From Escherichia coli (GTDB taxonomy: Bacteria; Pseudomonadota; Gammaproteobacteria; Enterobacterales; Enterobacteriaceae): a DNA stretch of 64,000 bases. How positions within the stretch are numbered: position 1 is the first letter of the stretch; each line of letters starts with the position of its first letter. The stretch lies in NCBI RefSeq assembly GCF_030013205.1, contig NZ_CP122648.1; one strand, 5' to 3'. Both the position numbers and the translations under genes were made by a program. Under the pieces are notes generated by a model. The model was not told where the DNA came from. It worked only from the letters and a program-made list of their open reading frames with translations, and searched no databases. Shown here piece after piece: positions 8,323-61,373 of this stretch.

Positions 8323-8660
8323 TTTAGTCCCTGAAAATTCTTGAGAAATAACGGTTCTTTAAATTGCGCGCGAGGAGAGATATGAGGGATTTACAGACCA
8401 GCGGCATAGTGGGGTTGTCAGCCAGTAAGGTGGGATACAGGCATAGTGATCGACATGGTGAGGTCAACGACAAAAAAAATGTTGCCGTTCTGCCAACAGT
8501 TCCTGCCAGCATTCGGGCAACGAAGGGTTCTACTGGTGGATACACATACCAGGGGAATAAAGTCGTTTTAACCTCTCCTTTAGTAATCACCGGGGGTAAT
8601 GAAATCAGCATCTGCATCCCTCGTCATGCCAGCCATCAATTTCAGTTGCTTATGTCCTGA

Positions 8661-11651: not shown

Positions 11652-12299
11652 ATGACAGCAGAATTTATTATACGTCTTATACTCGCAGCAATTGCCTGTG
11701 GCGCTATTGGCATGGAAAGGCAAATGCGCGGCAAAGGAGCAGGGTTACGCACACATGTATTAATTGGCATGGGAAGCGCCCTGTTTATGATTGTTTCGAA
11801 ATATGGTTTTGCTGACGTGCTGTCTTTAAATCACGTCGGACTGGACCCCAGCCGTATTGCTGCTCAGGTGGTGACGGGCGTCGGGTTTATCGGCGCAGGT
11901 AACATTCTCGTTCGTAACCAAAATATTGTAGGTCTGACGACGGCAGCGGATATCTGGGTGACCGCCGCCATTGGTATGGTTATTGGTAGCGGTATGTACG
12001 AACTGGGCATTTATGGTTCAGTGATGACCTTGCTGGTGCTGGAAGTCTTCCATCAATTAACCTTCCGCCTGATGAACAAAAATTACCATTTACAGCTGAC
12101 ATTAGTGAACGGTAATACGGTATCAATGCTCGACTGGTTTAAGCAGCAAAAAATAAAAACGGATTTAGTTTCGTTGCAGGAAAGTGAAGATCATGAAGTG
12201 GTCGCCATTGATATCCAGCTTCATGCCACAACGTCGATAGAAGATCTGTTGCGATTATTAAAAGAGATGGCAGGGGTGAAAGGCGTTTCAATTAGCTAA
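11652..12299 (+). CDS. yhiD: MgtC-family inner membrane protein YhiD
   Basis: 215 aa from MTAEFIIRLILAAIACGAIGMERQ. Confidence 0.88.
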   Translation: MTAEFIIRLILAAIACGAIGMERQMRGKGAGLRTHVLIGMGSALFMIVSKYGFADVLSLNHVGLDPSRIAAQVVTGVGFIGAGNILVRNQNIVGLTTAADIWVTAAIGMVIGSGMYELGIYGSVMTLLVLEVFHQLTFRLMNKNYHLQLTLVNGNTVSMLDWFKQQKIKTDLVSLQESEDHEVVAIDIQLHATTSIEDLLRLLKEMAGVKGVSIS

Positions 12300-12317
12300 T
12301 CTGTATAGTTATTTATT

Positions 12318-12352
12318 CACAGGAGTACCAGAGCGGTACTCCTGTTGGTTTT
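12318..12352. terminator. bidirectional rho-independent terminator between the convergent yhiD and chuV genes
   Basis: Perfect 10-bp stem caggagtacc/ggtactcctg with loop agagc, flanked by T-runs on both strands. Confidence 0.6.
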
Positions 12353-13121
12353 AATGATCGAGGACGATCAGTGGTGAATGGTTGGCAGGATCTTTAAGTA
12401 CGGTAATATCCGCGCCGTAGAGCATTGTCAGCGCCTGCTGTGTCAATACGTCCTGCGGTTTACCATTTGCGATAACCTTTCCTTTTTGCATTAATACAAT
12501 ACGGTCTGCATAACGCGCGGCAAGATTTAGATCGTGCAATACGCAGCAAACATTGAACTGCCGTTCGTGAACTAACTGGCGTAATAAACGGAACAAGTGC
12601 TGCTGATGGTGAATATCCAGCGCCGAAGTTGGTTCATCAAGAAATAACCATTTCGGTGAGGGAGTAGGTTCCCAGAGTTGCACCAGCAGGCGCGCTAATT
12701 GTACGCGCTGTTGTTCACCACCGGATAATTGCCGATAGTCGCGGTTTGCTAACGCCTGACAGTCACATAACGCCATTATTTGTGCTGTTTCATTATCCTG
12801 ATTACCAGTACGATGCGGATGCCGACCCATCTGGATAACTTCTTGTACGCTGAATGGAAACGCCATGTGGCTATTTTGACGCATCACGGCCCGGTGTTTC
12901 GCCAGTTCAGTAATCGACCATTCATTTAATGGCTTATTAAACAACCGACATTCGCCGCTATCAGGTTGAAGATAGCCGGTTAACTGGCGAAGCAGCGTAG
13001 ATTTTCCCGCACCATTAGGGCCGAGAATGGCAACAATTTCCCCACCGGGAAAAGTCAGCGAGACATTGTCAGTCAGACGCCGCCCCTGAAGGCTATAAAC
13101 CAGATTCTGGGCGCTGATCAT
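12351..13121 (-). CDS. chuV: haem ABC transporter ATP-binding protein
   Basis: Walker [13 protein letters not shown] signature LSGGEQQRV; the start at MISAQNLVY overlaps the chuU stop by 4 nt. Confidence 0.85.
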
Positions 13122-14110
13122 GTGATCCTCCGGTTGCGCAGAATCAACCACATAAAATAAGGACCGCCAAGCAGGCTGGTTAATAATCCCACGGGCATTT
13201 CTGCTGGCTGTACCAGCGTGCGGGCAAGCGTGTCTGCCATCAGCAATAAACAGGCTCCGGCGAGGGCGGAGCAAGGGATTAGCCAGCGGTGATTTGCCCC
13301 GGTAGTCATACGAATCAGATGCGGGATCACCAGGCCAATAAAGCCGATAATGCCGCTTACCGATACGGCGGCACCAACGAGCAGTGAGCTCACTAACAGT
13401 AATTGCTGGCGTTTACGCTTAACGTTCACGCCGAGGTAGTGGGCTTCTTCATCACCGAGCTGCAGTAAATTCAGCGTTCCGGCGAGACAAGTTGTTGCGA
13501 TAATGGCCGGTAGGATGAATGAACTGGCAACCAATAACGTCGGCCATTGCGCCTTTCCAAGATTGCCCATCATCCACAATGTGAGTTGTCGTAGCTGCTG
13601 CTCATCGCCGATATAGCTCAGGATGCCGATCGCTGCGCCGCACAGGGCATTGATGGCGATACCGGCGAGTAATAATTGCATCATGCTGCCATCGCGATGG
13701 CGCTGCGTGATGAGAAAAATGATGGTGCAGACCACTAAACTTCCGGCAATGGCAAACACCATTTGCTCATAGAGCACCAGCACCACTGGGAAGGAGAAGG
13801 GCAGCACAATAGCAACGCCAACCATTAATGCAGAACCGCTACTGACGCCGAGTAATCCAGGGTCAGCCATTGGGTTGCGAAAAAGCCCCTGCATAATTAC
13901 CCCGGCGGTTGCCAACGCTGCACCTACCAGCACCGCCAGCAAAACCCGTGGTAGACGAATATTGAGCCAGATATCGCGGTATTCCTCATCAAAAAGGGCA
14001 TCAAAACTGATCTTTAACGCTCCCTGACTGGCACCGAACAGCACCAGGGCAAGCAATAATAGTGATAGCCCCATAAAGACCCTGGCGGATGAAAATGAAT
14101 CCTTGAGCAC
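13118..14110 (-). CDS. chuU: haem ABC transporter permease (FecCD family)
   Basis: 330 aa polytopic permease of BtuC/FecCD type. Confidence 0.85.
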
Positions 14111-14160
14111 GCAAAACTCCGTTATGACGTTGCGGCGCGGAGAGTCTGCGCCGCATGGGA

Positions 14161-14784
14161 TTACGCCGGTTTCAGGTCAGGTTCAATCAGACTGTAGATC
14201 TGCTTGTTGAGTGCTGGCGCGTTTGCCAGTTCATGAATGTGTGCAGCGACATCGGCACGGTGAACAAAACCATGACACTCCTGATTTTGTATCCGTTGTG
14301 CTTTGCCCGTTGCCGCCCCATCAAGCAGACCGCCAGGGCGGAGAATGGCGTAATCAAGCTGGCTGGTTTGCAACCAGCTTTCCGCCAGCGTTTTTTCCCG
14401 TACCGCCTGACCAAACGCAGCCTTTGCCCGCTCCGATAAAAACGGCCAGCTATCGCCGCATCCCAAAGAGGTCACCAGAATCATGCGACTGATGCCGGCC
14501 TTTTCGGCCTCATCAATCACTGTTCTGTGCGCCAGATAATCCTGAGCTCCTCCCATTGTTGAGATGATAAGCGCATCCGGGCCAGCTGCGCGGCAAGCAG
14601 CCGCAACTACGCTGGCATCACAGGCGTCGCCTGTAAAAACCTGTACGCCTTGTTGCGCCAGTTTCGTGGCGGCATCGGCATGACGAACGACAGCAACGAC
14701 CGGACGTTGTTCCGCCAGCGCCAGTTCAAGCGTTCTGGCACCCACACCTTTTCCGCCTGCGCCAAAGAGTAGCCACGGCGTCAT
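14161..14784 (-). CDS. chuY: ChuY, NAD(P)-binding reductase-like protein of the haem-utilisation operon
   Basis: 207 aa ORF with a Rossmann-like N-terminus; start overlaps the chuX stop. Confidence 0.75.
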   Translation of the reverse strand: MTPWLLFGAGGKGVGARTLELALAEQRPVVAVVRHADAATKLAQQGVQVFTGDACDASVVAAACRAAGPDALIISTMGGAQDYLAHRTVIDEAEKAGISRMILVTSLGCGDSWPFLSERAKAAFGQAVREKTLAESWLQTSQLDYAILRPGGLLDGAATGKAQRIQNQECHGFVHRADVAAHIHELANAPALNKQIYSLIEPDLKPA

Positions 14785-15278
14785 CAGGCGTGTTCCTTTA
14801 ACGATGCCGCCAGAGCATGGAAAGCGTTGACCTGTTCGCTCAGGAGCTGACGATGGTCATCCCTGCCGAGGAAGATTTTCAGCATGGCGCTGCCTTCCTT
14901 ATTGAAAAAGAGAATAGAGGCGGTGTCCATGCCCATAAATTTACGTTCGATCAAGGCAATATGCGTGCAGTTTTCTGCTTTGATATGCCCGGACATGCCG
15001 TGCTTTCCGCGTAGGTTGAAATAGCCGTGGCGGTGGAAACCCGAAGGCAGTTCGCCGCTAAATTCGAGGATTACATCGGCAGTATGTACTAACGTGGTGA
15101 CGTTGCCCCATTCGCAGACGGTATCCCAGACAGTATCGAATTTATCGCCTGACACTATGGTAGAGGAGGGCAGATTTTTCACTACTTCCAGCAGTGTGGT
15201 GTTGTATTGTTCGGCTACCACCTCCAGCGTACCGTCCGGCTCCGTTTTCAAAAATTCTTGTAACGAGACATGGCTCAT
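14784..15278 (-). CDS. chuX: ChuX haem-binding/utilisation protein
   Basis: 164 aa ORF, MSHVSLQEFLKTEPDGTLEVVAEQYN; position in the chu operon. Confidence 0.8.
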   Translation of the reverse strand: MSHVSLQEFLKTEPDGTLEVVAEQYNTTLLEVVKNLPSSTIVSGDKFDTVWDTVCEWGNVTTLVHTADVILEFSGELPSGFHRHGYFNLRGKHGMSGHIKAENCTHIALIERKFMGMDTASILFFNKEGSAMLKIFLGRDDHRQLLSEQVNAFHALAASLKEHA

Positions 15279-15290
15279 AAATCACTCCTG

Positions 15291-16628
15291 TTATGGTTTT
15301 TCACGCACAATCGCTGGCGCATTAAGTACCTGAATTAGTTCATTAAGAGACTGCAAAATATTGCTTGCCCAGAAACGACCTTCATTAGTCAGCCGCAGGC
15401 AAGTTGAAGCATCGCGACTTAAGCCTTTTTGGTGCCATTGAGCCAGTAACGGCGCGAGTTTTTCGGCATGTGGCGTAAGTTCATCCAGCGGTACACGCGC
15501 TGTTTCAACACCTGACTGCAAGGTATGACGCCATTGCGCATCACGTTCGGCGTTACGCATGATCATCATCAGCGGTTTTTTGCCTGCCGCGACGGATTCA
15601 TGCCAGGTCTGAAGATTGCGTTCGTTCATCCAGGAGTAACCATTAATCGAACCGCCGGCTCCGGAACCAAAGGCCAGACAATCGGCACCTTGTTTAATCA
15701 GCAGGTTATAGAGATTGCGTTCGCGTGTGGTACGGCCCCAGTGGCTGTTACTGATGCAGCGCCAACCGGCTTCGTCCATGAAGTCACACCCTTGCAGATA
15801 AAGATCGCGACGTTCTGCCGGAGAGGGCACGGTAGTACGCCCATTTTCCACGGCTTTGCCCAGCGGTGTATTGGGCAGGACATTGAGCGCATAGAGATCG
15901 ACGCCGTCGAGACCGATATCGCGAGCAATAGCCAGATCTTCTCCCCAGGTTTGCGCATCCTGACCCGGCAGGCCAAACAGCAGGTCACAGACCACCGCTG
16001 CACGGTCGCGTTTGACCAGGCTTTCCATAAACGCAATGGCGGTTGGGCCATCCGAGGTGCGGGCCATTTTCTTGCGGATTTTGCTGTTAAACGACTGAAT
16101 ACCAATTGAGAAGCGGTTTGCTCCTGCATCAAGGCAAGCATCGATTCGCTCAGCGTCAAAATTCAGTACCCGGCCTTCGATAGTGATTTCACAATCAGGG
16201 GTCAGTGGCAGCTTTTCTCGTAATGTATTGATAATTCTGGCTAAATCGTGTGCAGAAAGCGCGGAAGGCGTGCCGCCACCGAAATAGACCGCGTGGATGG
16301 GGGCAGACTGATGCAATACGCTGTCCGCTTCCATTTCTATTTCACGAATCAGGGCGTCGGTATAATGAGCACACGCATCTTCATTAAAACGGTTCTGATA
16401 AAAACCACAAAACGTGCAGTGTGTCGCACAAAAAGGAATGTGTAGATAAACCAGTCGCTTACGTGGTGATACCGTTTGATTGATCATCTCTTGCCAGGTC
16501 TGTGCCAGTTGCTCTTTGGCAACCGGAATGGCTCCACGAAACGGCATCATGGCGCGCCTGTCTTTAAATGGCTGATCACCGTCTAAAGCAAAATGTGGCG
16601 TGAGATCCAGGGTGTTATTTGCGTTCAT
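15291..16628 (-). CDS. chuW: ChuW, radical-SAM HemN-like anaerobic haem-degrading enzyme
   Basis: 445 aa ORF with CxxxCxxC radical-SAM motif (CATHCTFCGF). Confidence 0.85.
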   Translation of the reverse strand: MNANNTLDLTPHFALDGDQPFKDRRAMMPFRGAIPVAKEQLAQTWQEMINQTVSPRKRLVYLHIPFCATHCTFCGFYQNRFNEDACAHYTDALIREIEMEADSVLHQSAPIHAVYFGGGTPSALSAHDLARIINTLREKLPLTPDCEITIEGRVLNFDAERIDACLDAGANRFSIGIQSFNSKIRKKMARTSDGPTAIAFMESLVKRDRAAVVCDLLFGLPGQDAQTWGEDLAIARDIGLDGVDLYALNVLPNTPLGKAVENGRTTVPSPAERRDLYLQGCDFMDEAGWRCISNSHWGRTTRERNLYNLLIKQGADCLAFGSGAGGSINGYSWMNERNLQTWHESVAAGKKPLMMIMRNAERDAQWRHTLQSGVETARVPLDELTPHAEKLAPLLAQWHQKGLSRDASTCLRLTNEGRFWASNILQSLNELIQVLNAPAIVREKP

Positions 16629-16647
16629 TCGTCTGATTTAAATCCAT

Positions 16648-17562
16648 TTATTGCGGCCAAAGCTGCTGGTGTAAAGACTCAACGACATCAGCAATACGCG
16701 GACCCATTCCCAGAATCAGGTTTTGATCAACGGTGATAATGCGCTGGTTTTTCCATGCGGCAGTGTGGGTAATTCCGGCAATAGAACGTAGCCGATTAAT
16801 ATCGCCATCGACCATTTGTGAGGTTACGACAATCACTTCTGGATTGGCCGCAATCAGTGATTCTGCACTGTAGCTTTTGTACTGCTGGTGGGTTGCGACG
16901 TTTTCTGCTCCGGCAAGCGAAAGAATGGCGTCCGCGACGCTGCCTTTACCGGCAACTTGTGGCGCACTTCCGCCTGCGGAGAGAATAAACATGGCTTTAA
17001 CCGGGGCTTTTTTGGCCGCCACGTTTTGCTGTACTCGCTCCAGGCGTTGGTTGATCTGTGTCACCAGCGCCTCGCCTTGTTCAGGAACCTGTAGCGTTTT
17101 TGCCAGTTGGCGAATGTTGGCGTACATCTGCTCAAGGGTGGCAGGCACACGCGGCAGGGTAACGACGTTGACTTTCTGCGCCCGTAGTTGGTCGAGCACA
17201 ATTTGCGGTCCAGCATCCTGCCAGGTAATTACGCTATCCGGGCGAAGTGACAAAATGCCTTCGCTGCTGAGTTGTTTCCAGTAGCCAATATGCGGCAGTT
17301 TGGCGGTTTCTGGTGGATAAGATGTCGTTTCATCGACACCAACCACGCGTTCGCCAGCGCCCATCGCGTAGATTAGCTCCGTCAGCGATCCTCCTGCGAC
17401 CACGATACGTTCGGCAGCCGTTACGCTAAAAGCCCAGCTAAGAGCCAGTACTGCCGTAAACAATTTTTTTCGTTTTACCGCGGTCTTCGCGGCAGAGGCC
17501 ACGGCTGAAATACATAACGTTAGTGGGGAAAAAAGAAACGGCCTGGTGATGATCCTTGGCAT
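16648..17562 (-). CDS. chuT: periplasmic haem-binding protein ChuT (start codon uncertain; the ORF track extends to 17640)
   Basis: Class III periplasmic binding-protein fold; the Met at 17562 gives 304 aa and places a Fur-box-like site just upstream. Confidence 0.75.
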   Translation of the reverse strand: MPRIITRPFLFSPLTLCISAVASAAKTAVKRKKLFTAVLALSWAFSVTAAERIVVAGGSLTELIYAMGAGERVVGVDETTSYPPETAKLPHIGYWKQLSSEGILSLRPDSVITWQDAGPQIVLDQLRAQKVNVVTLPRVPATLEQMYANIRQLAKTLQVPEQGEALVTQINQRLERVQQNVAAKKAPVKAMFILSAGGSAPQVAGKGSVADAILSLAGAENVATHQQYKSYSAESLIAANPEVIVVTSQMVDGDINRLRSIAGITHTAAWKNQRIITVDQNLILGMGPRIADVVESLHQQLWPQ

Positions 17563-17585
17563 AATATGAGAACTCTTATCAAATT

Positions 17586-17604
17586 GAGAATGATCATGAT
17601 TATC
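17586..17604. promoter_or_regulatory. Fur-box-like site upstream of chuT
   Basis: gagaatgatcatgattatc matches the 19-bp Fur consensus GATAATGATAATCATTATC at 16 of 19 positions. Confidence 0.5.
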
Positions 17605-17936
17605 ATTTGGGTTATATATGAAATACAACCGTCGATTCAATACGTAAGGCGTTACAAGCGTATTTATTTTTGATTTTTATCAAGATGCTTCGTCAGCTAA
17701 CGTTCTTGTTACCGACTAAATTTCAGCGCGGGAAAAAGCTGAGAACCCAGAGATATCAAGGCTTGCAGAGCAAAGCGAAGAGAAAATTATCACTGTTAAC
17801 GACAAAGTTTAGTGATGAGGTCATGGGGGAATAACCATAAAAACAAAGTGGTTTCCAGGGCGCAGGATAAGTTTCATAACCCCCTGTTTATTGTGTTAAT
17901 GGCGGTTAAAAAAAGCTTGATCATAAAAAATTGATC

Positions 17937-17955
17937 GATAATAATTCTCATTATC
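17937..17955. promoter_or_regulatory. Fur-box-like site in the chuA promoter region, about 290 nt upstream of the chuA start
   Basis: gataataattctcattatc matches the Fur consensus at 16 of 19 positions. Confidence 0.5.
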
Positions 17956-18244
17956 ACGTTTGCGCTTAACAAAACACGACCATATGGATAACAAAACCAT
18001 AGCATTTGCAAGGGATAACGCACAGCGCTCTTCACTCCTGATGGGGCATATCGTTTTGCCTGACAAAGAGGGCGTGCTTTTGCGTATTTGCCGAGATACC
18101 AGGCAATTTCATGGGATATAAACGCCTGTAAACTCACCCGGCGAATATTATCGCTCTGAATTTTAAATAAATTTATTTTTCGCCAGCCACCCCGGTATTA
18201 ACCCAGGCAGCCAGCATTTTTTATTTTCCTCATGGAGAATCGCT

Positions 18245-20227
18245 ATGTCACGTCCGCAATTTACCTCGTTGCGTTTGAGTTTGTTGGCTTTGGCTGTTTC
18301 TGCCACCTTGCCAACGTTTGCTTTTGCTACTGAAACCATGACCGTTACGGCAACGGGGAATGCCCGTAGTTCCTTCGAAGCGCCTATGATGGTCAGCGTC
18401 ATCGACACTTCCGCTCCTGAAAATCAAACGGCTACTTCAGCCACCGATCTGCTGCGTCATGTTCCTGGAATTACTCTTGATGGTACCGGACGAACCAACG
18501 GTCAGGATGTAAATATGCGTGGCTATGATCATCGCGGCGTGCTGGTTCTTGTCGATGGTGTTCGCCAGGGAACGGATACCGGACACCTGAATGGTACTTT
18601 TCTTGATCCGGCGCTGATCAAGCGTGTTGAGATTGTTCGCGGACCTTCAGCATTACTGTATGGCAGTGGCGCGCTGGGTGGAGTGATCTCCTACGATACG
18701 GTCGATGCAAAAGATTTATTGCAGGAAGGACAAAGTAGTGGTTTTCGTGTCTTTGGTACTGGCGGCACGGGGGACCATAGCCTGGGATTAGGCGCGAGCG
18801 CGTTTGGGCGAACTGAAAATCTGGATGGTATTGTGGCCTGGTCCAGTCGCGATCGGGGTGATTTACGCCAGAGCAATGGTGAAACCGCGCCGAATGACGA
18901 GTCCATTAATAACATGCTGGCGAAAGGGACCTGGCAAATTGATTCAGCCCAGTCTCTGAGCGGTTTAGTGCGTTACTACAACAACGACGCGCGTGAACCA
19001 AAAAATCCGCAGACCGTTGAAGCTTCTGATAGCAGCAACCCGATGGTTGATCGTTCTACAATTCAACGCGATGCGCAGCTTTCTTATAAACTCGCCCCGC
19101 AGGGCAACGACTGGTTAAATGCAGATGCAAAAATTTACTGGTCGGAAGTCCGTATTAATGCGCAAAACACGGGGAGTTCCGGCGAGTATCGTGAACAGAT
19201 AACAAAAGGAGCAAGGCTGGAGAACCGTTCCACTCTATTTGCCGACAGTTTCGCTTCTCACTTACTGACATATGGCGGTGAGTATTATCGTCAGGAACAA
19301 CATCCGGGCGGCGCGACGACGGGCTTCCCGCAAGCAAAAATCGATTTTAGCTCTGGCTGGCTACAGGATGAGATCACCTTACGCGATCTGCCGATTACCC
19401 TGCTTGGCGGAACCCGCTATGACAGTTATCGCGGTAGCAGCGACGGCTACAAAGATGTTGATGCTGACAAATGGTCATCTCGTGCGGGGATGACTATCAA
19501 CCCGACCAACTGGCTGATGTTATTTGGCTCATATGCCCAGGCATTCCGCGCCCCGACGATGGGCGAAATGTATAACGATTCTAAGCACTTCTCGATTGGT
19601 CGCTTCTATACCAACTATTGGGTGCCAAACCCGAACTTACGTCCGGAAACTAACGAAACTCAGGAGTACGGTTTTGGGCTGCGTTTTGATGACCTGATGT
19701 TGTCCAATGATGCCCTGGAATTTAAAGCCAGCTACTTTGATACCAAAGCGAAGGATTACATCTCCACGACCGTCGATTTCGCGGCGGCGACGACTATGTC
19801 GTATAACGTCCCGAACGCCAAAATCTGGGGCTGGGATGTGATGACGAAATATACCACTGATCTGTTTAGCCTTGATGTGGCCTATAACCGAACCCGCGGC
19901 AAAGACACCGATACCGGCGAATATATCTCCAGTATTAACCCGGATACCGTTACCAGTACCCTGAATATTCCGATCGCTCATAGTGGCTTCTCTGTTGGTT
20001 GGGTCGGTACGTTTGCCGATCGCTCAACACATATCAGCAGCAGCTACAGCAAACAACCTGGCTATGGCGTGAATGATTTCTACGTCAGTTATCAAGGACA
20101 ACAGGCGCTCAAAGGCATGACCACTACTTTGGTGTTGGGTAACGCTTTCGACAAAGAGTACTGGTCGCCACAAGGCATCCCACAGGATGGTCGTAATGGA
20201 AAAATTTTCGTGAGTTATCAATGGTAA
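18245..20227 (+). CDS. chuA: TonB-dependent outer-membrane haem/haemoglobin receptor
   Basis: 660 aa ORF with signal peptide, TonB box (ETMTVTA) and C-terminal terminal Phe/Trp beta-barrel signature (…FVSYQW). Confidence 0.92.
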   Translation: MSRPQFTSLRLSLLALAVSATLPTFAFATETMTVTATGNARSSFEAPMMVSVIDTSAPENQTATSATDLLRHVPGITLDGTGRTNGQDVNMRGYDHRGVLVLVDGVRQGTDTGHLNGTFLDPALIKRVEIVRGPSALLYGSGALGGVISYDTVDAKDLLQEGQSSGFRVFGTGGTGDHSLGLGASAFGRTENLDGIVAWSSRDRGDLRQSNGETAPNDESINNMLAKGTWQIDSAQSLSGLVRYYNNDAREPKNPQTVEASDSSNPMVDRSTIQRDAQLSYKLAPQGNDWLNADAKIYWSEVRINAQNTGSSGEYREQITKGARLENRSTLFADSFASHLLTYGGEYYRQEQHPGGATTGFPQAKIDFSSGWLQDEITLRDLPITLLGGTRYDSYRGSSDGYKDVDADKWSSRAGMTINPTNWLMLFGSYAQAFRAPTMGEMYNDSKHFSIGRFYTNYWVPNPNLRPETNETQEYGFGLRFDDLMLSNDALEFKASYFDTKAKDYISTTVDFAAATTMSYNVPNAKIWGWDVMTKYTTDLFSLDVAYNRTRGKDTDTGEYISSINPDTVTSTLNIPIAHSGFSVGWVGTFADRSTHISSSYSKQPGYGVNDFYVSYQGQQALKGMTTTLVLGNAFDKEYWSPQGIPQDGRNGKIFVSYQW

Positions 20228-20275
20228 TCATCTGCCCCGATATTTCGGGGCATTTATCTGGAAGGAAGAGAGACA

Positions 20276-21304
20276 ATGAACCACTACACACGCTGGCTTG
20301 AGTTAAAAGAACAAAATCCCGGAAAGTACGCGCGTGACATCGCAGGTTTAATGAATATTAGCGAAGCAGAACTGGCATTTGCGCGCGTCACGCACGATGC
20401 GTGGCGGATGTGCGGCGATATCCGTGACATTCTGGCGGCGCTCGAAAGTGTTGGCGAGACCAAATGTATTTGTCGTAATGAATATGCAGTCCATGAGCAA
20501 GTTGGTGCGTTCACAAACCAGCATTTGAACGGACATGCCGGATTGATCCTCAATCCGCGCGCGCTGGATTTGCGTCTGTTTCTCAATCAATGGGCCAGTG
20601 TTTTTCACATTAAAGAAAATACGACTCGTGGCGAACGCCAGAGTATTCAGTTCTTTGATCATCAGGGCGATGCATTACTAAAAGTTTATGCCACCGACAA
20701 TACCGATATGGCGGCATGGAGTGAGCTTCTGGCACGGTTTATCACCGATGAGAATACGTCGCTTGAGTTAAAAGCCGTTGATGCGCCAGTTGTTCAAACG
20801 CGAGCCGATGCCAGTGTGGTCGAGCAAGAGTGGCGGGCGATGACCGACGTTCATCAGTTTTTTACGTTGCTCAAGCGCCACAACCTGACGCGCCAACAGG
20901 CGTTCAATCTGGTGGCAGATGATTTGGCCTGCAAAGTATCCAACAGTGCGTTGGCGCAAATTCTTGAATCTGCACAGCAGGATGGCAATGAAATCATGGT
21001 GTTTGTTGGCAACCGTGGCTGCGTACAGATTTTCACCGGTGTGGTAGAAAAAGTGGTGCCAATGAAAGGTTGGCTGAATATTTTTAACCCGACGTTTACT
21101 CTTCATCTATTAGAAGAGAGCATTGCTGAAACCTGGGTAACCCGTAAACCTGCTAGTGACGGTTATGTGACCAGTCTGGAATTGTTTGCCCATGATGGTA
21201 CGCAGATAGCGCAACTTTATGGTCAACGTACAGAAGGCGAACAGGAGCAAGCGCAATGGCGTAAGCAAATTGCTTCGCTGATACCGGAAGGCGTTACTGC
21301 ATAA
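20276..21304 (+). CDS. chuS: haem oxygenase / haemin-degrading protein ChuS
   Basis: 342 aa ORF of HemS/ChuS type, immediately after chuA. Confidence 0.9.
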   Translation: MNHYTRWLELKEQNPGKYARDIAGLMNISEAELAFARVTHDAWRMCGDIRDILAALESVGETKCICRNEYAVHEQVGAFTNQHLNGHAGLILNPRALDLRLFLNQWASVFHIKENTTRGERQSIQFFDHQGDALLKVYATDNTDMAAWSELLARFITDENTSLELKAVDAPVVQTRADASVVEQEWRAMTDVHQFFTLLKRHNLTRQQAFNLVADDLACKVSNSALAQILESAQQDGNEIMVFVGNRGCVQIFTGVVEKVVPMKGWLNIFNPTFTLHLLEESIAETWVTRKPASDGYVTSLELFAHDGTQIAQLYGQRTEGEQEQAQWRKQIASLIPEGVTA

Positions 21305-21364
21305 CGTATAATTAACGGGAGGTCTGGCTATTTATTGCTGGGCCTCTTTATATTAATCAATCGA

Positions 21365-21895
21365 TCACACCAGATAATCAATATGCTGATGGCGTACCAA
21401 CTCATTGATCCGCTTAAGATTGAGGATCATCATGATATTGTGTTTATGGCAGTAGAACGTTTTTAGCGATATTTTCAGTTTCTCCAGAATATCTTCCGTT
21501 GTCATTTGATTCGCAATGCAGCTCAGAACCTGATGCTGCTTGCGCGAAAGGGACACATCCGCTTCAGGCACAGAGCAGTAACTGCCATTGATGAGTGCGA
21601 CAAAGTCGATGATGGTGATAGTTCGCGGAACAAAGGTCACCGGTACTTTCCCCAGGCAGCGTTTAATATTAAAGGGAGAGAAAATAATCACATGGACAGG
21701 TTTTAATCGTTCAATTTGAGTGAGCAAATTAGAATGAAATACATTATTCATTAATGTATCAATAATGACGAAGGCATGCTGATGCAACATTACGTCGATC
21801 TCTTCTTCGTTCTGTATATGAACGACATTACCTTTACTCAGAATGTTTTTCATCGCAGTGAAGAACATCGTATCCCTGGTAATTATAAGAAACAT
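21365..21895 (-). CDS. dctR: LuxR-family regulator DctR (YhiF)
   Basis: 176 aa ORF with a C-terminal LuxR HTH; downstream of slp. Confidence 0.85.
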   Translation of the reverse strand: MFLIITRDTMFFTAMKNILSKGNVVHIQNEEEIDVMLHQHAFVIIDTLMNNVFHSNLLTQIERLKPVHVIIFSPFNIKRCLGKVPVTFVPRTITIIDFVALINGSYCSVPEADVSLSRKQHQVLSCIANQMTTEDILEKLKISLKTFYCHKHNIMMILNLKRINELVRHQHIDYLV

Positions 21896-22047: not shown

Positions 22048-22614
22048 TTATTTGACCAGCTCAGGTGTTACCTGACTCACCGCATTGGTGTAGTAAGGCG
22101 CGCCCCAGCCTGGTTCCGGCCAGAATGCACCATAGCCGTAATCCCACAGGTTATAGGTGGTATTAACCATTTCTCTCAAATGCCACACCTGAATGCCCTG
22201 CATATTCACTTCCAGGAAGTTATACGGGACTTTATTGATAAAGCCAGGTTGTTCACCCTGAATGGTACCGAGGATGGTAACAAAGTGATTACGATAGTTC
22301 ACTGGATCAAGGAAGCCGCTTTGTCTGGCGAGCAGTCGGCCCTGATAGTTGGCTTCAATATCAGGCTTCGCATAGCTATCCAACGGTAATACAGCGATTT
22401 CTAACAACGTATCCGTTTTGCCATTGATAACGTTGATAACCTTCCCACCAAAGCGCGCTTGTTGACCAACATATAACCCCGGCTGGTTATGAACAGCAAC
22501 AAAACTTTTTTGAATATCAGGTTGGTTATTGCCTTTGATATTTTGCGGAATTGAACTACATGCGGCAAGCAAAAATGAAAGGCTGAGGATGAGTGCACCT
22601 TTTGTCATGTTCAT
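22048..22614 (-). CDS. slp: starvation-inducible outer-membrane lipoprotein Slp
   Basis: 188 aa from MNMTKGALILSLSFLLAACSS (lipobox LAAC); the ORF track's upstream extension is ignored. Confidence 0.88.
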   Translation of the reverse strand: MNMTKGALILSLSFLLAACSSIPQNIKGNNQPDIQKSFVAVHNQPGLYVGQQARFGGKVINVINGKTDTLLEIAVLPLDSYAKPDIEANYQGRLLARQSGFLDPVNYRNHFVTILGTIQGEQPGFINKVPYNFLEVNMQGIQVWHLREMVNTTYNLWDYGYGAFWPEPGWGAPYYTNAVSQVTPELVK

Positions 22615-51088: not shown

Positions 51089-51575
<487 letters not shown>

Positions 51576-51874
51576 TTTGTTCTCCTTAATTATGTAAGGA
51601 GAATTTGATCATGTATAAGCAATAAAAAACAGCTTTAGATAATGAGGAATATCTCAATTTTTAAACATAAAATGTGAATTATTTAGTACAAAAAAGCAGC
51701 GTTACGTAATCTTTCCCTGACTAATATATAGTTAAATGCAATCAACTTATTATTCATCGATGCATTTTATAGAATCATCAATGGCTATAATAGTACTATT
51801 AACTCTCAATTTTATATTTTTATCATCACTACAAATATTAACTGAATTTATATCAATGATTTTTATCTTTTATT

Positions 51875-52189
51875 TTATTTTATTTTATTTGCAGTTTCAA
51901 TGCAATCAGCGGCAAGTTGGTGTGAATTTAGATTTTTCAGATATGGTCTTATGATCTTTCCCTTACTTAATAAATAGCATGTATAGGATTCGTAAAGTCC
52001 AGCATCTATTTTGTACCTCATTATATTAGATAAGGATGTGAGAAATTCCTTGTTATCATTCGCAGTCATATATGCCAGTCCGAGTTCAGCCTCTGCGGCC
52101 TTACAGGAAAAATAGCTAAGTGAACACGCTTTTCGTCCCTCTTTAGTACTGGCTGATATTAGTGCCCATAATATTGCTTTGTCTGCCAA
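51875..52189 (-). CDS. hypothetical small protein downstream of the orphan rhs C-terminal fragment (possible orphan immunity gene; TTG start)
   Basis: 104 aa ORF in AT-rich DNA; assigned on position only. Confidence 0.3.
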   Translation of the reverse strand: MADKAILWALISASTKEGRKACSLSYFSCKAAEAELGLAYMTANDNKEFLTSLSNIMRYKIDAGLYESYTCYLLSKGKIIRPYLKNLNSHQLAADCIETANKIK

Positions 52190-52277
52190 ATCTAACTCTC
52201 TCTGAAATTGTCTTGCAGTAAATGCACTCGCAGAAATAGAGAAAAAAATACAATTGTTAATAACTTTGCCATATTTT

Positions 52278-52870
52278 TTAGTCCGTAACTGTTAATGTGC
52301 TATCTGGCTCTGAAAATATTAACTCATTTAATTTTTGCATGTCATTAGATGAACCAGTTATACAACCCTCGGAACAGAATCGAGGTCCTAAAGACGGACC
52401 GAAAGCGTTTAAATAACTATGTATTGAAAATCCATTACGATTATAATTTCCTGTATTAACTGACGGTACTAATCGTATGCCGTCAGGTTTTCTATTGCTT
52501 GCTCCCGGGTCATTAACATTCCAACTCCACAGGCCTTGAGGTATTGGCCCTCTATTTATAAATGTGTACAACGGGGATTATTTTTACATTGCATATTATT
52601 ACCAGAAGCGACTGGAATACTAAGCACATCATAAAAATTATCATCACCTGGTATATCTGAAACACACGAAAGCATACCTAAAGTTATGCTGTATAAACAT
52701 GTGGCTAATCCCAAGGGGATCGATTCCAGAAATCGGGTTCAACGGATACTGATAAAAATTCCACCTACCTTCCAGCCCAATCGGAGCCTGAGTGTTATAC
52801 CGCCCCTGCTGCGGTTAATGTTACCGATAATAGTTATAGTACAGCCCTGATTCATCATCATACTACTGCT
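52278..52870 (-). pseudogene. orphan Rhs C-terminal fragment: core-end remnant with DPLGL motif plus divergent tip, apparently frameshifted
   Basis: Minus strand translates …[24 protein letters not shown]…; the DNA at 52700-52870 is a diverged copy of the main Rhs core 3' end at 54650-54810. Confidence 0.6.
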
Positions 52871-52895
52871 GCGGCAGTCTGATGAATTATTGCTT

Positions 52896-53363
52896 TTACG
52901 GATTCTCCTTATTCTTCCTTCTATCCATTCGCTTTAGCTTTAGCTTTTTGAGCTCTTGAAATTTGCTCTTTGCATCAATATTACCGTTATTTACAGCGAA
53001 TTCCATCCAATAAATAGCTTTATTCAAATTATAATATTCTGATAATATTGGATTTGTATCCGATAAAAAAACCCCATAATTAAACTGCGCTGTAACATTC
53101 CCCTGAGATGCTGATCTTTCTAAGTATTGCAATTGTTTGTAAATGTTATTTTTAGTAAAGCAGTAATATTGATATAGTCGAAATGATGCCTCTGAATCAC
53201 CATGTTGTGATTTATACTTCAGTTTCATCAACTTTTCTTCACTTAAATCATAGGTCATTGCTGTAGACCCCATCATACTTTCGTTTTGTTTTATTTTCAC
53301 ATCAGCACCATGCAATTGAAAAATAAAAGAGAAATAAAAAAATAGTAACAAGCATGCTTTCAT
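52896..53363 (-). CDS. signal-peptide-bearing Sel1-like repeat protein; candidate immunity protein for the Rhs C-terminal toxin
   Basis: 155 aa ORF; N-terminal MKACLLLFFYFSFIFQLHG looks like a signal peptide; Sel1-like segments (SASQGNVTAQFNYGVFL, AIYWMEFAVNNGNIDAK); starts 9 nt after the reconstructed Rhs stop. Confidence 0.5.
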   Translation of the reverse strand: MKACLLLFFYFSFIFQLHGADVKIKQNESMMGSTAMTYDLSEEKLMKLKYKSQHGDSEASFRLYQYYCFTKNNIYKQLQYLERSASQGNVTAQFNYGVFLSDTNPILSEYYNLNKAIYWMEFAVNNGNIDAKSKFQELKKLKLKRMDRRKNKENP

Positions 53364-53478
53364 ACATCTACAACCTATCTTATATCACTGGGTTTTTCTG
53401 GCGTACCTTGCATATTAGAAATGGGGTGCCCAGATGGCCCATATGTTATCCAATTACCAAGGTCTTTTGTTGTTATAG

Positions 53479-54246
53479 GGTAATGACTCCAACTTACTGA
53501 TAGTGTTTTATGTTCAGATAATGCCCGATGACCTTGTCATGCAGCTCCACCGATTTTGAGAACGACAGTGACTTCCGTCCCAGCCTTGCCAGATGTTGTC
53601 TCAGATTCAGGTTATGCCGCTCAATGCGCTGAGTATAACGCTTGCTGATAACGTGCAGCTTTCCCTTCAGGCGTGATTCATACAGCGGCCAGCCATCCGT
53701 CATCCATACCACGACCTCAAAGGCCGACAGCAGGCTCAGAAGACGCTCCAGTGTGGCCAGAGTGCGTTCACCGAAGACGTGCGCCACAACCGTCCTCCGC
53801 ATCCTGTCATACGCGTAAAACAGCCAGCGCTGACGTGATTTAGCACCGACGTAGCCCCACTGTTCGTCCATTTCAGCGCAGACAATCACATCACTGCCCG
53901 GTTGTATGCGCGAGGTTACCGACTGCGGCCTGAGTTTTTTAAGTGGCGGAAAATCGTGTTGAGGCCAACGCCAATAATGCGTGCACTGGCGCGACATCCG
54001 ACGCCATTCATGGCCATATCAATGATTTTCTGGTGCGTACCGGGCTGAGAGGCGGCGTAAGTGAACTGTAGTTGCCATGTTTTACGGCAGTGAGAGCAGA
54101 GATAGCGCTGATGTCCGGCGGTGCTTTTGCCGTTACGCACCACCCCGTCAGTAGCTGAACAGGAGGGACAGCTGATAGAAACAGAAGCCACTGGAGCACC
54201 TCAAAAACACCATCATACACTAAATCAGTAAGTTGGCAGCATCACC
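53479..54246 (-). mobile_element. insAB: IS1 insertion sequence, 768 bp, with insA (53916-54191) and insB (53494-53997), flanked by an 8-bp target-site duplication tgttatag
   Basis: InsA ([30 protein letters not shown]…) and InsB translations; terminal repeats ggtaatgactccaacttactgat and ggtgatgctgccaacttactgat; direct repeat tgttatag at 53471-53478 and 54247-54254. Confidence 0.9.
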
Positions 54247-57200
54247 TGTTATAGCCATTAGATCCTTATTTGAATTAAGGTTCGTTGGTGCTGTTAGCAC
54301 TGTATCCATTTTTAACTTACCATTAGTTCCTCGCCCCCACCACGTCCATAGCGTGTCAGGTCCTATTACATTTGTATGTAACTCTTTAGCTAATTGGCTA
54401 GCAAATGAATTTTGTCCTTTACCTGTATTACAAGAAAATAACCAAACTGTCATCCCATCTTTATAATTCCCATCAAATTTAATTAGATATGCTAGATCTT
54501 TAGCTGTCATGATACTGCGCGTTGCGGATTCAATAGATGTGGGGGTACCATGCCCCCCGATTGTGAAAACGCCTGGGATATTAATCTCATCAGCTACAGA
54601 ATGGATAAGATCACTTTCGGGGTATAAATTTATATCAACCAAACCTTGCGGATCTACATTTATGACCGGATTCAACGGATACTGATAAAAATTCCATCCC
54701 CCCTTCAGCCCAATCGGATCCTGAGTGATATACCGCCCCTGCAGCGGGTCATAATAGCGGTGGCGGTTGTAATACAGGCCGGACTCCTCATCATACTGCT
54801 GACCCGGCAGGCGGATGAGCTGCTGCAGCTGGTGCGGGTTCTCTTCATTCAGCAGGTTGCCCCACTCATCGTATTCTGCGTACCACGCTGTTGCCCCTTC
54901 CGTGCTGACAAGCGCCAGCGGCAGGCCGCGATGGTCGCAGTGGTACAGGTGGATTTTTCGCGCCGGCGTGTACACCGGGTCCATCTGGTTTTGTATCTGC
55001 TCCACCGTCAGGCCGCACGATGCCAGCCAGCGGCGGCTTTCCTCACTCACCCGGTCAGCCAGGATTTCACTTTCCAGCCGGTCGAGCATCTGCACCAGCA
55101 CCGGCGGGAACACCATACTGCCACCGTCTTCACCGCCGGACTGCTGAAGGGCATCCGCCAGGCTGCGGCGCTGCGTTTTCGCCAGCTCACCGGTGGCGGT
55201 TTCGACCCTGATGAGTGGCGTGAAGCTCCCCGGCTGATAAACCGTCTGGATGCGGGTTCTGTCGTTCTGTATCGTGGTCAGCCGGTCGCCGTCCCAGCCG
55301 TACCAGGTCACTTCCGGTTTCCGTGACAGCGACATCCAGCCCGTCAGGTCCCGTTCACGCCGCCACACCCGTTTTGCCACCCTGCGGCCCAGCGGGTTTC
55401 AACCAGCGGCTCTGCATATTGTGTCCGCGTGTAGTGCACCAGCCGGTGCCGGCTGTCGTAATGGTACCGGTGAGTCCGCTCATCATCCGTGCGGATAACC
55501 CCTTCCGGGATGAGGTCGGTTTTCTCCGTCAGCCTGCCGTGACGGTCATACCGGTAAAGATAGTGCGCGTCACGGGCGATACGGTTATCCGGCCACATGC
55601 TGAGGGTGCTGTCCGGGTGCAGCTCCGGGTCGGGCAGGCGGTTGCCCGCCGGGTCCGTGGCATACGGGATGCGGATATCCAGATTCGCTGCGGTGGTGTG
55701 GACGCCGGTCAGCCTGCCGGTGTCGCTGTAGCTGTAACTCCGGGTCTGGCGCGGGCTGCTGATGCGGATGAGTTCGCCGTTGTCGTTCCAGGTGTAATCG
55801 CGGTCATACTGCAGGCTGTTCAGGTGCTGGCTCTGTAACTGCCCGGCAGGGGTGTAAGCGGTGGTGAGTTCATAACGGCCGAAGCTGCGCAGCGTTTCCC
55901 GGTGCAGGCGGTCGCGGGTGTACTCCACCAGCGGTGTGTCGCCGAGTTTCATGCCTGACAGCCAGCCGCTGCCGTAGGTCAGCCATTCCACGGCGGGCAG
56001 GCTGTCCGGTATACAGCGGTTCGCCAGTCCCTGCGTGTTGTAAGCGTGTCTGGTTTCATGCTGCCAGAGCAGTGCTTCCGTCTGCGGATGATGCACCGTC
56101 TGGCGCTCACCGGTCAGGCGGCCTTTCTCATCATACCCGTAATGCACCGTCACCCGGTGGCCTTCGCTGAGATGGCTGATGCCTGTCAGCCAGCCGCGTT
56201 CGTCATACTGCCACTGCTCTGCAGGTTCACCCTTCACGGTGCGGTGAGTGAGGCGGTCTGCTTCGTCATAGTGCCAGTGGGTGACCAGCCCCTCATCCTC
56301 GCTGCGGATAAGTTTACCGGTCAGGTCGTGGTGATAACGCTGTGTGCGGCCGTCAAAGCCGGTTTCCTGTATCAGCCGGTCGAGTACATCGTAACGGAAG
56401 GTGGTGTGGCTGCCGTTTTCACTGGTCAGGCGGATGACCCGTCCGGCAGCATCGTATTCCATACTGCGCGTCAGACCGCCCTGTGTGGTACGGATGGCCT
56501 TTCCCCACGCATCGTACTGTGTCCCGTTTCTGCTGCCGTCCGGGGCAATGACGGCGGTCAGGTCACCGGCGGCGTTGTATTCATACCGCGTTTCATGGCC
56601 CTGCGTGTCTTTCACCGCAATTAACTGTCCACGGCTGTCGTATGCGCGGTACTGACTCAGCCCTTCCTCGCGGTGCACCGCCGTCACCTGACCAAAACGG
56701 TCATGGTCATAACGGGTTACATAACCGGAACAGTCAGTGACGGTCAGCAACTGACCGTAACGGCTCCATGTCATGGTTTTCCGGCTGCCGGTGGCATCTT
56801 CCGTTGCGCAGGGTAAGTCACTGTGTGGATTATCATAACGGTAGCGGGTGATATCGCCGTTGTGTGCGGTTTCCTGAATCAGACGGCCGGATTCATCATA
56901 TTTGCGGCGCAACTCCAGCCCGTCAGTCCCGGTGGCTGACGTTAACTGGTTGTGGTGGTTATAGTAAAATGCCGATGCCCTGCCATCCGGTGTGGTGATG
57001 CGCGTGATGAGTCCCGTCACCACATCCGGGCTGTACTCAGTCGTCCGGCCTGCGGCATCCGTCTGTGCCTTAAGCCCGCCCACCGCGTCAAACTGACTCT
57101 GCGTGACGCTGCCGTCCGCGTGTTCCTTTTTCACCACCCGCTTCAGCCCGCCTTCGCCCTGCGTGTGCAGCACTTCACGGCGGTCCAGACTGTCGGTGAT

Positions 57201-58364
57201 GGTGATGCGGTCTTTCTCATACTGATACGTGTAGCTTAAGCCTGCCGGGTTTAGCTGTTCTGTCACCCGCCCGTCGCTGTCGTAACGGTAACGGATTTCC
57301 GGCCGGCCCGTGTGACGGTGCGCCACCATCCGGCCCCGGTATTTATCATCGTAAGTAAAGCTGCGCACCTGTGTATTGCTGCGGTCATACACCGCCGCCA
57401 GTTCGCCGCGTGGCGTCCAGCCATAGCGCACCAGCGGCGCGGCAGGTAAATTCTCCGGGTATTCCGGGTCGTGCGTCAGCCACACGGCAGACAGACGGAT
57501 GCCGTTGTCCCGGCCATATTCGGTGTAACCCGGCAGGGTATCAGGAAAAGCGGACGGTTCCGTCCCGCCGGAAGAGGCCTGCTGCCGGGCTTCTTCTGCC
57601 CGCTGCGCCTGCGTGGTCAGTACCAGCCGGAAGTGACGCCCGGCACCATCCGTCACGCCGGTGATTTCGCCGCTGAATTCGCCGCCAGCCTCACGGTGAA
57701 ACGTCTGTGTGCGCCCGAAGCGGTCCACCAGCCCGGTCAGTACCCGGTACGGCGGCAGCGGCGCGGGCAGCACCTCATCCGCTTCCGGCACCCGCTCACA
57801 CCAGCCGAGCAGCCACCACGGCCCCTGCGGACTGTTTGTCGCCAGATAACGATGCGGACTTAAGCGGAGTTCTTCCGGCAGCGCCTGCCAGAGTGCGGCC
57901 AGCCGGTGACCTTCATCCAGTTTCAGGACACCGCCACGCACCAGCCAGAGTGATTCGCTGCGGCTGTAACCGTCCTCACCGGGAAACAGGTGCTCAAAAT
58001 ACAGGCTTCTGCCGCCGTTATCACTGAGTATCAGTGTGTTATCGCGCAGCTGTAAGCGGATATCCGCAGGCATTTTCCAGCCGGGGCCTAGGCTTCCCAC
58101 CGGCGCGGGCGTTTTTGTCCGGTAACTGCTGTAGGTGCGGGAGAGGATGAACGGCAGCGGGCCGGGCAGTGCAAGGTCTGTCTCGCCGGGAAGGACCTTC
58201 GCACCGAGCAGCGGATTGACCGGATGGCCGGACGTCACCCCGCCGGGGCACACCGAACAGGCCACGCCGGTGGGGGCACCAATACGTACCCCGGCTGAAC
58301 CCTGGACAATGCTACCGCCATACTGCGTCATGTCGCCCTGACGCGCCGCCGGTTTTCCGCTCAT
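54247..58364 (-). pseudogene. rhs: Rhs-family YD-repeat protein, disrupted twice: frame switch near 55391-55400 and IS1 insertion into the C-terminal tip
   Basis: N-terminus [44 protein letters not shown] repeats; frame A stops at 55344 while frame B carries [17 protein letters not shown]…DPQGL and the tip; the last 8 codons of the tip ORF are IS1 terminal-repeat sequence. Confidence 0.85.

Positions 58365-58566: not shown

Positions 58567-61369
<2,803 letters not shown>

Positions 61370-61373
<4 letters not shown>

Follow-up and report, generated by a model that had tools for sequence, protein, structure and literature searches.

The chu Haem Uptake Block in the Acid Fitness Island of Escherichia coli: Probably an Old, Non-Mobile Module Swapped with an Empty Allele

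Gene Content and Organization of the chu Locus

The window, i.e., the whole 64-kb stretch of E. coli DNA analysed here, contains the chu/shu haem uptake and degradation module, O-island 140 of O157:H7. The module is composed of chuVUYXWT on the minus strand and chuA-chuS on the plus strand, all intact and flanked by yhiD and dctR; no internal stop codons are present in the genes for haem degradation, chuS, chuW, chuX and chuY. Gene order, strands and coordinates bear out the sequence-only reading of this DNA, which had placed the chu block inside the acid fitness island between yhiD and dctR. That reading had also assigned the source to a chu-positive lineage, which holds, the window being 100% identical to E. 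coli ETEC1748 (the record from which the RefSeq gene names were taken); the B2/D/E-like phylogroup proposed along with it is not readable from the window, which does not include the marker genes.

The left flank ends with yhiD (11652-12299, plus strand), which encodes an MgtC/SapB family protein (RefSeq annotation; NCBIfam NF007431, 399 bits versus a cutoff of 214) and converges on chuV. The minus-strand genes are, from left to right, chuV for the haem ABC transporter ATPase (12351-13121; annotation and NCBIfam NF010068, 395 bits versus a cutoff of 261), chuU for the permease of this transporter (13118-14110; annotation and Pfam FecCD, E = 1e-95), chuY for anaerobilin reductase with an NAD(P)H-binding fold (14161-14784; annotation and Pfam NAD_binding_10, E = 2e-37), chuX (HutX) for a cytosolic haem carrier (14784-15278; NCBIfam TIGR04108, 210 bits versus a cutoff of 110), chuW (HutW) for a radical-SAM methyltransferase of anaerobic haem degradation (15291-16628; NCBIfam TIGR04107, 570 bits versus a cutoff of 400), and chuT for the periplasmic haem-binding protein (16648-17562; annotation and Pfam Peripla_BP_2, E = 2e-34). 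On the plus strand chuA/shuA encodes the TonB-dependent outer-membrane haem/haemoglobin receptor (18245-20227; RefSeq name and NCBIfam TIGR01785, 588 bits versus a cutoff of 317), and chuS a haem-degrading protein with two HemS/ChuX domains (20276-21304; annotation and Pfam HemS, E = 1e-80, in two stretches). Haem bound by the ChuA receptor is passed from periplasm to cytoplasm by the ABC transporter ChuTUV, and is degraded aerobically by ChuS and anaerobically by ChuW, ChuX and ChuY. To the right lies dctR (yhiF), encoding a LuxR-family regulator (21365-21895, minus strand; annotation and Pfam GerE), the last gene of the slp-dctR unit, which converges on chuS. Around the chu block gadA, gadX, gadW, mdtFE, gadE, hdeD, hdeAB, yhiD, dctR and slp keep their K-12 order, and an Rfam match to the GadY sRNA is found at positions 2579-2692.

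The two operons are separated by an AT-rich divergent control region of 682 bp (17563-18244; 39% GC). A scan of all 64 kb with the Fur-box consensus GATAATGATAATCATTATC, allowing up to three mismatches, returned two sites only (0.02 expected), both in this region: one on the chuT side (17586-17604) and one on the chuA side (17937-17955). The 5'-UTR RNA thermosensor of shuA/chuA spans the chuA start (18216-18247, plus strand; Rfam RF02597, 60.1 bits versus a gathering score of 58). A terminator-like hairpin of eight pairs, six of them G-C, followed by a T-tail, lies between chuA and chuS (20233-20252, plus strand) and may act as an attenuator.

Relation to Known Haem Uptake Loci

The shu "haem transport locus" of Shigella dysenteriae was reportedly described by Wyckoff et al. 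in 1998. The window has what characterizes it: the ChuA receptor, the ChuTUV transporter, intact chuSWXY and the site between yhiD and dctR, as well as its predicted control features, i.e., the two Fur-box matches and the RF02597 thermosensor. O-island 140 (O157:H7 EDL933/Sakai) and the shu locus share the same eight genes, order, strands and site, as checked in O157:H7 F6294, and the window differs from O-island 140 by allelic sequence variation only, with no structural difference. The Yersinia hmu/hem and Vibrio hut systems are built of the same parts (TonB-dependent receptor, HemS-type protein, binding protein, permease, ATPase, and HutW/HutX homologues), and the NCBIfam equivalog models that match chu proteins carry Hut names; the context and gene order of hmu/hem and hut are unlike those of chu. 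The arrangement itself is already known: O-island 140, or the haem transport locus, is long described and has been placed between yhiF (dctR) and yhiD (PMC10540162, PMC5799925, PMC9144400), and earlier work has already discussed that it lies together with the acid fitness island.

Junctions and Regulation

The junctions are as tight as had been claimed, with gaps of exactly 51 bp between yhiD and chuV (12300-12350) and exactly 60 bp between chuS and dctR (21305-21364). The left gap contains a hairpin of 11 perfect pairs (12319-12345; -19.1 and -19.6 kcal/mol, z -3.8 and -5.7) that is followed, on the plus strand, by TTGGTTTTA. The earlier description of a bidirectional terminator on the yhiD side stands as regards the hairpin, of about -19 kcal/mol on either strand, and fails as regards the T-run, present on the plus strand only; the element should thus serve yhiD well as a terminator, and chuV less well. 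The yhiD terminator at this junction is supplied by island DNA. In two other Escherichia species (L003 and L006) the 27 nucleotides of the hairpin are unchanged despite a gene divergence of 8-10%. The hairpin of the right gap, read as the chuS terminator (21318-21347, plus strand, then UUUAUAUU), has -18.7 kcal/mol on the plus strand (z -3.4) and is far weaker on the minus strand (-10.4 kcal/mol, z -2.0), because there the G-U pairs turn into mismatches.

The module would appear self-contained: its two operons diverge from the central region with the Fur boxes and the chuA thermosensor, and transcription of each probably stops at a hairpin of its own, opposite the 3' end of the acid-resistance operon on that flank. 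The whole would sit in a convergent-terminator gap, with no promoter of the acid island broken. With divergent operons and terminal hairpins that face convergent flanking genes, no promoter is expected to cross either junction, and on the strength of this layout we infer that regulatory cross-talk between chu and the acid island is absent.

It could be argued instead that the position of chu is adaptive, iron uptake and acid resistance being co-regulated by GadE, GadX, H-NS or through read-through. In transcriptomes cited in PMC10540162, chu is induced, under acid stress and in macrophages, alongside genes of the acid island; on the strand of the slp-dctR transcript the hairpin is weak (-10.4 kcal/mol), making antisense read-through into chuS conceivable; and another acid-defence system, a urease cluster, fills the equivalent dctR|hdeB gap in a distant relative. 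Nevertheless, such selected coupling is improbable, as both junctions are tail-to-tail with hairpins, the Fur boxes are internal only, the base-composition contrast described below points to separate origins, and the block is missing from 58.5% of E. coli genomes. Also on this side, the GAD-box consensus TTAGGATTTTGTTATTTAAA has no match at up to three mismatches anywhere in the window, a null result that by itself carries no information on GadE control.

Distribution of the Occupied and Empty Sites

The full chu block is present in 2234 of 5426 complete E. coli genomes (approximately 41%), always at the same single chromosomal site, and in 3175 of them (58.5%) yhiD and dctR are adjacent, i.e., the site is empty. 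No genome in the Escherichia scan bore the name of E. marmotae, E. ruysiae or the E. coli type strain. Among the 2238 E. coli genomes with the block, the median number of chromosomal places is one, and no genome has the block on a plasmid. The only matches labelled as plasmids are two records of 4.9 Mb, read as mislabelled chromosomes, and plasmid-borne chu was rejected accordingly. The haplotype of the window is a rarer one, found at an island identity of at least 99% in 30 genomes. Its island is 97.6% identical over 9059 bp to that of O157:H7 (phylogroup E), 96.5-96.6% identical to those of F11 and other low-ranking genomes, presumably of phylogroup B2, and up to 98.6% identical to those of a third, untyped strain set. 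Phylogroups A, B1 and C are devoid of chu.

The acid fitness island of E. coli K-12 (slp to gadA), reportedly described by Hommais et al. in 2004, has the same flanking genes in the same order. A 41-bp gap separates yhiD from dctR in chu-negative genomes, among them BL21 and the K-12 derivatives TG1 and KLY, so that the adjacency of these genes in K-12, stated in the sequence-only reading, is now seen directly in TG1 and KLY. Base-by-base comparison of the window with an empty site (L002) delimits 9060 bp of allele-specific DNA (12305-21364), in place of which the chu-negative genomes have the 36-bp filler GTGGCAGCGTAGCCAGACTCACCGTAAGCCTGAAAT. The two alleles are thus related by replacement of one sequence by another, unrelated one.

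Mobility Signatures and Base Composition

The reading made from the sequence had noted no integrase, tRNA or long flanking repeats, and the searches bear this out. ARAGORN predicted no tRNA gene in the whole 64-kb window, the annotation lists no integrase, transposase or insertion sequence at or near the borders of the block, which is filled by the eight chu genes, the two spurious open reading frames of the central gap have no Pfam match, and no direct or inverted repeats pairing the two block ends were found. The comparison with the empty site reveals a replacement with no target-site duplication. K-12 has no equivalent genes at the site, and no mobile-element remnants lie at the junctions. 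The GC content of the island is 50.3%, compared with 49.3% for the window and 40-43% for the adjoining acid-island DNA; it equals the genome average and does not mark a mobile island. Among the Hacker-type hallmarks of such islands only presence or absence among strains is observed here, while a tRNA, an integrase or insertion sequence, repeats and a deviating base composition are not. The chu block is not a self-mobile island. It resembles tRNA-linked pathogenicity islands, e.g., the LEE at selC, in being strain-variable, virulence-associated and of a GC content unlike that of its immediate neighbours; it differs from them in lacking a tRNA target, an integrase and direct repeats, in the average GC content, and in a divergence that indicates old vertical residence.

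Age and Exchange of the Two Alleles

The identity of chu to the window is 97-98% within E. coli, about 95.5% in Escherichia sp. MOD1-EC7003, 91-92% in L003 and L006, and 89-91% in E. albertii; as far out as E. albertii, chu and its flanks have diverged in step. The order of the species is taken here from a small number of locus-linked genes and not from a genome tree. The left junction is identical in L003 and L006, and the insertion point is common to three species. These data weigh heavily against a recent acquisition, in which a pathogenicity islet would have entered B2, D, E and similar lineages on a phage, plasmid or integrative element that later lost its mobility genes. A horizontal origin was proposed in the original 1998 description, as far as the summary in PMC5799925 goes, and would suit both the patchy distribution among strains, at 41% of genomes, and the GC content of 50% next to 40-43%. 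Such a recent event is very hard to reconcile with a block that has no tRNA, integrase or repeat and no genuine plasmid copy, with one insertion point in three species, and with chu being as deeply diverged as its flanks, not more shallowly.

The origin of the empty allele can be approached through its filler. No match to it at up to three mismatches is present in the window, and its local alignment scores against the island fall in the range of shuffled 36-mers; derivation of the filler from the island was ruled out on these two grounds. Aligned without gaps from the yhiD stop codon, it matches the empty sites of E. whittamii and Escherichia sp. E1V33 at 22 of 36 positions, a level reached by none of 20,000 shuffles; for the yhiD-dctR spacer of E. 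fergusonii homology to the filler is not demonstrable (p = 0.07). The part ACGGGAGGTCTGGCTA of the filler weakly resembles, when reverse-complemented, the left arm ACGGTGAGTCTGGCTA of the chuS hairpin (p = 0.005 before correction). This might hint at a different origin of the filler; the resemblance was set aside as probable chance, being one of about 40 comparisons and confined to the E. coli filler.

A simple alternative is that chu is ancestral in E. coli and was cleanly lost once, in A, B1 and C, by deletion in situ with no exchange of alleles. The flanks of chu-negative genomes are almost the same haplotype as those of chu-positive O157:H7 (group E), up to the junction itself, and the 61-mer comprising the filler is at least 99% identical in 3153 of 3177 genomes, which fits one recent origin within E. 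coli. Partial deletions in situ are, moreover, known at this locus in MOD1-EC7003 and in HH97 and HH45. In HH97 and HH45 the allele is a hybrid, chuV-chuU-chuY'-filler-dctR; the illegitimate joint is one and the same in both, but their chu parts differ by 35 SNPs. Deletion is still unlikely as the source of the empty allele: it cannot create a 36-bp filler absent from the island, and fillers left by independent deletions would not share the homology seen with the empty sites of two further Escherichia species.

Homology of the filler in other Escherichia, together with chu divergence that tracks the flanks, indicates instead that both alleles are old and probably swap via the flanks. Recombination at the locus is also suggested by the nearly shared flank haplotype of chu-positive O157:H7 and chu-negative genomes, and by the hybrid allele of HH97 and HH45. 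Chu would have resided in the chromosome at its present site at least since E. coli and E. albertii shared an ancestor, coexisting with what appears to be an equally old empty allele, and the two were most likely exchanged among lineages by homologous recombination acting on the conserved yhiD and dctR flanks. Such exchange would account for the junctions being clean as well as for the patchy distribution. On balance we favour chu as an old, self-contained, non-mobile module that has been swapped with an old empty allele by homologous recombination, the recombination being deduced from these patterns. A bolder version is put forward tentatively: the gap between hdeAB(-yhiD) and slp-dctR might be an ancient docking gap in which both alleles predate the Escherichia species and have been kept or passed on purely by homologous allelic replacement, the chu-negative A, B1 and C lineages having re-imported the ancestral empty allele instead of arising by deletion. 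Elsewhere the equivalent gap contains yhiD only, nothing, or, in the distant relative mentioned above, the urease cluster in the dctR|hdeB gap.

Significance

As a discovery the window offers nothing new, being a standard, intact O-island 140; what is added here is the replacement by a 36-bp filler, the age of both alleles and the self-contained layout of the block. The widely used Clermont phylogroup PCR branches first on whether chuA is present, and chu is known to contribute to the fitness of extra-intestinal and enterohaemorrhagic E. coli. If the locus is an old chromosomal dimorphism, exchanged through flank homology and not carried by a mobile island, this would bear on the trust placed in chuA as a phylogenetic marker, and also on how virulence-associated cargo may spread without mobility genes.

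The chu block within the acid fitness island

The block of about 9 kb between yhiD and dctR (yhiF) is the already known shu/chu 'haem transport locus', O-island 140 of O157:H7; its primary description is reportedly that of Wyckoff et al. from 1998. O-island 140 has been described as 'inserted between yhiF and yhiD' inside the acid fitness island (PMC10540162), and the O157:H7 acid fitness island, of 22–23 kb, as that of K-12 with the chu genes added (PMC9144400; bioRxiv 10.1101/429480). The co-location of the two islands was explicitly discussed in the xenoGI study, in which chu lies inside the acid island of E. albertii too, and E. fergusonii has an acid island without chu at a different site (PMC5799925).

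The position assigned to the block by the sequence-only reading was borne out by the RefSeq annotation, the ORF listing and the translations, which agree on the layout; the annotation is that of E. coli ETEC1748, a strain isolated from a pig in Belgium, whose chromosome is 100% identical to the window over 16 kb. Next to yhiD (11652–12299, + strand) lie, on the − strand, chuV (12351–13121), chuU (13118–14110; FecCD), chuY (14161–14784; NAD_binding_10), chuX (14784–15278), chuW (15291–16628) and chuT (16648–17562; Peripla_BP_2), and, beyond a central gap of 682 bp, chuA (18245–20227) and chuS (20276–21304; two HemS domains) on the + strand, followed on the − strand by dctR (21365–21895; GerE domain) and slp (22048–22614). 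All eight chu ORFs are intact, and their names were borne out by NCBIfam and Pfam searches, chuV, chuX, chuW and chuA being above the NCBIfam equivalog/subfamily cutoffs. The end gaps, put at 51 and 60 bp, had the same values on direct inspection.

No mobility signatures came to light: there is no tRNA or tmRNA gene in the whole 64 kb (ARAGORN), no repeat pairing both block ends was found in the repeat search, an integrase would not fit into the block, and neither of the two stray ORFs of the central gap matches a Pfam family. The only 'plasmid' matches to the block are two records, both of 4.9 Mb, which we read as mislabelled chromosomes.

Regulatory elements and operon organization

The chu block is a self-contained module. 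The Fur-box consensus has only two matches in the 64 kb (0.02 expected by chance), both in the central gap, one adjoining chuT (17586–17604) and the other upstream of chuA (17937–17955), and the shuA/chuA thermosensor of Rfam (18216–18247) lies over the chuA start. No match to the GAD-box consensus at up to three mismatches was found anywhere in the window, which says little either way. The GC content of the island is 50.3% versus 40–43% in the adjoining acid-island DNA, a contrast that argues against a joint arrival of the two islands. Two small RNAs of the acid island are above their Rfam gathering scores, GadY between gadX and gadW (2579–2692) and ES205 directly downstream of gadE (8472–8543).

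The two chu operons point outward, tail to tail with the flanking genes. Of the bidirectional terminator proposed on the yhiD side, the hairpin (12319–12345) is present, but its T-run is on the + strand only; since this hairpin lies within island DNA, it is the island that provides the yhiD terminator in chu-positive strains. The empty-site spacer of E. coli folds no better than shuffled sequence. The right hairpin (21318–21347) is a good chuS terminator, at −18.7 kcal/mol versus a weak −10.4 on the dctR strand, a weakness that might let slp-dctR transcription run on into chuS in the antisense direction.

Other features of the window

Beyond slp, the yhiS-like gene (22859–24082), frameshifted according to the identical RefSeq record, varies far more than any other segment nearby (85–96% identity among E. 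coli) and is cut short in F11 and HH97. Between yhiS and arsC (24663–25961) a permease gene and a divergent ArsR/SmtB regulator form a strain-variable pair, present in the window and in the Ecol_316, SX48 and OkiPb strains and absent from O157:H7 F6294, WCHEC035148, VR50 and F11. Two AgrB antisense RNA matches (Rfam RF02891) beside the dinQ type I toxin gene represent the standard agrAB-dinQ locus (28477–28560, 28711–28794 and about 29069–29152). The region near selAB (51176–63251; coordinates converted from the RefSeq record annotation) contains two IS1 copies (53494–54191 and 62554–63251), a frameshifted RHS core gene (54220–58352) with RHS and immunity fragments, and an ISAs1 fragment (51176–51574).

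Occupied and empty alleles in E. coli

The 9-kb block is present in 2,238 of 5,426 complete E. coli genomes, essentially at full length in 2,234, with a median of one place per genome; in none of the 2,238 is it plasmid-borne. A 61-mer across the empty yhiD-dctR junction was matched in 3,177 genomes, including BL21 and the K-12 derivatives TG1 and KLY, and yhiD and dctR are 41 bp apart in empty-site genomes; K-12 thus lacks chu at this site, in line with the sequence-only reading. With the site empty in K-12 and no mobility signatures, both the observation and the interpretation of the sequence-only reading are correct.

Alignment of occupied and empty sites places the left breakpoint after TAATCTGT (12304) and the right one at the dctR stop codon (21365), with no target-site duplication at the junctions. 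Between the breakpoints there are 9,060 bp in the occupied allele versus 36 bp, GTGGCAGCGTAGCCAGACTCACCGTAAGCCTGAAAT, in the empty one, and the difference is therefore a replacement and not a clean insertion or deletion. This 36-bp filler has no counterpart anywhere in the window, and its similarity to the island is not above that of shuffled 36-mers.

The locus in other Escherichia

A single scan of species-representative genomes using DctR gave six loci. Two of them, labelled E. coli (L003 and L006), have a flank identity of only 87–92%, the full block and an unchanged left junction. E. albertii has the block and lacks yhiD; in strain NBRC 107761 (L007 19545–19660) the chuV stop is a few bases past the hdeB terminator, and the left junction is therefore unlike that of E. 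coli. Escherichia sp. MOD1-EC7003 retains chuA-chuS alone, chuTWXYUV being deleted (L004 13640–14330, corresponding to about 12307–17818 and 18120 of the window). At its deletion joint there is a partial copy of a repeat, presumably ERIC-type, with a full copy inserted in the chuA 5' region, the only repeat-element trace at the locus among all genomes examined. Escherichia sp. E1V33 and E. whittamii have empty sites.

The chu identity to the window, 97–98% within E. coli, about 95.5% in MOD1-EC7003, 91–92% in L003 and L006 and 89–91% in E. albertii, drops in parallel with flank identity, a pattern of long vertical residence and not of a recent chu transfer. The E1V33 and E. whittamii spacers, 32/37 identical to each other, align ungapped, starting at the yhiD stop, with the filler of E. 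coli at 22/36 identical positions, a value reached by none of 20,000 shuffles; independent clean deletions as the source of the empty sites cannot account for such homologous fillers. The parallel divergence together with the matching spacers shows that both alleles are old.

The E. fergusonii ATCC 35469 island (CU928158.2; L021 7076–16564), found via a DctR homologue that shares 63% identity with E. coli DctR, reads slp-dctR-yhiD-hdeBA-hdeD-gadE-mdtEF without chu and adjoins uxuA/uxuB-type genes, a site differing from that in E. coli. Here yhiD and dctR are neighbours, and the 73-bp spacer, with a canonical terminator, is not significantly similar to the filler (p = 0.07). In a divergent Escherichia-like acid island (Logan SRR26188688 contig, L028 1143–2063; DctR 74%, slp and hdeB about 84–85% identical) dctR directly adjoins the hdeB terminator, both yhiD and chu being absent. 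In a distant relative (Logan contigs L030 10001–19318 and L031 2596–11913; DctR homologue 52% identical) the interval from the dctR homologue to hdeB-hdeA is taken up by a urea transporter, a complete urease cluster and an ammonium transporter, so that the equivalent gap holds acid-defence cargo of another kind.

Exchange of alleles at the locus

Up to the junction, chu-positive O157:H7 and chu-negative strains have nearly one haplotype in their flanks, and among eleven sequences compared only position 12245 tracks chu status; such near-identity regardless of chu status indicates flanks probably well mixed by recombination. A third allele, yhiD-chuV-chuU-truncated chuY-filler-dctR, occurs in HH97 (L013 7855–8190) and HH45 (L018 6796–7127), two genomes from one study. 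Its illegitimate joint, GGCCAGCTACGCC|GTGGCAGCG (about 14452 of the window), is identical in both, while their chu parts (2.1 kb) differ at 35 sites, that of HH97 resembling the strain F11 type. A single odd joint on diverged backgrounds is direct evidence of recombination between the alleles at this locus. The joint is flanked by the 7-nt inverted microhomology GCTACGC/GCGTAGC.

We favour a reading, based on locus-linked genes from a handful of species, in which an old chromosomal module would sit in a convergent-terminator gap, the empty allele would be equally old, and the two would have been exchanged through flank homology. This reading refines the question raised in PMC5799925 and opens no new one.
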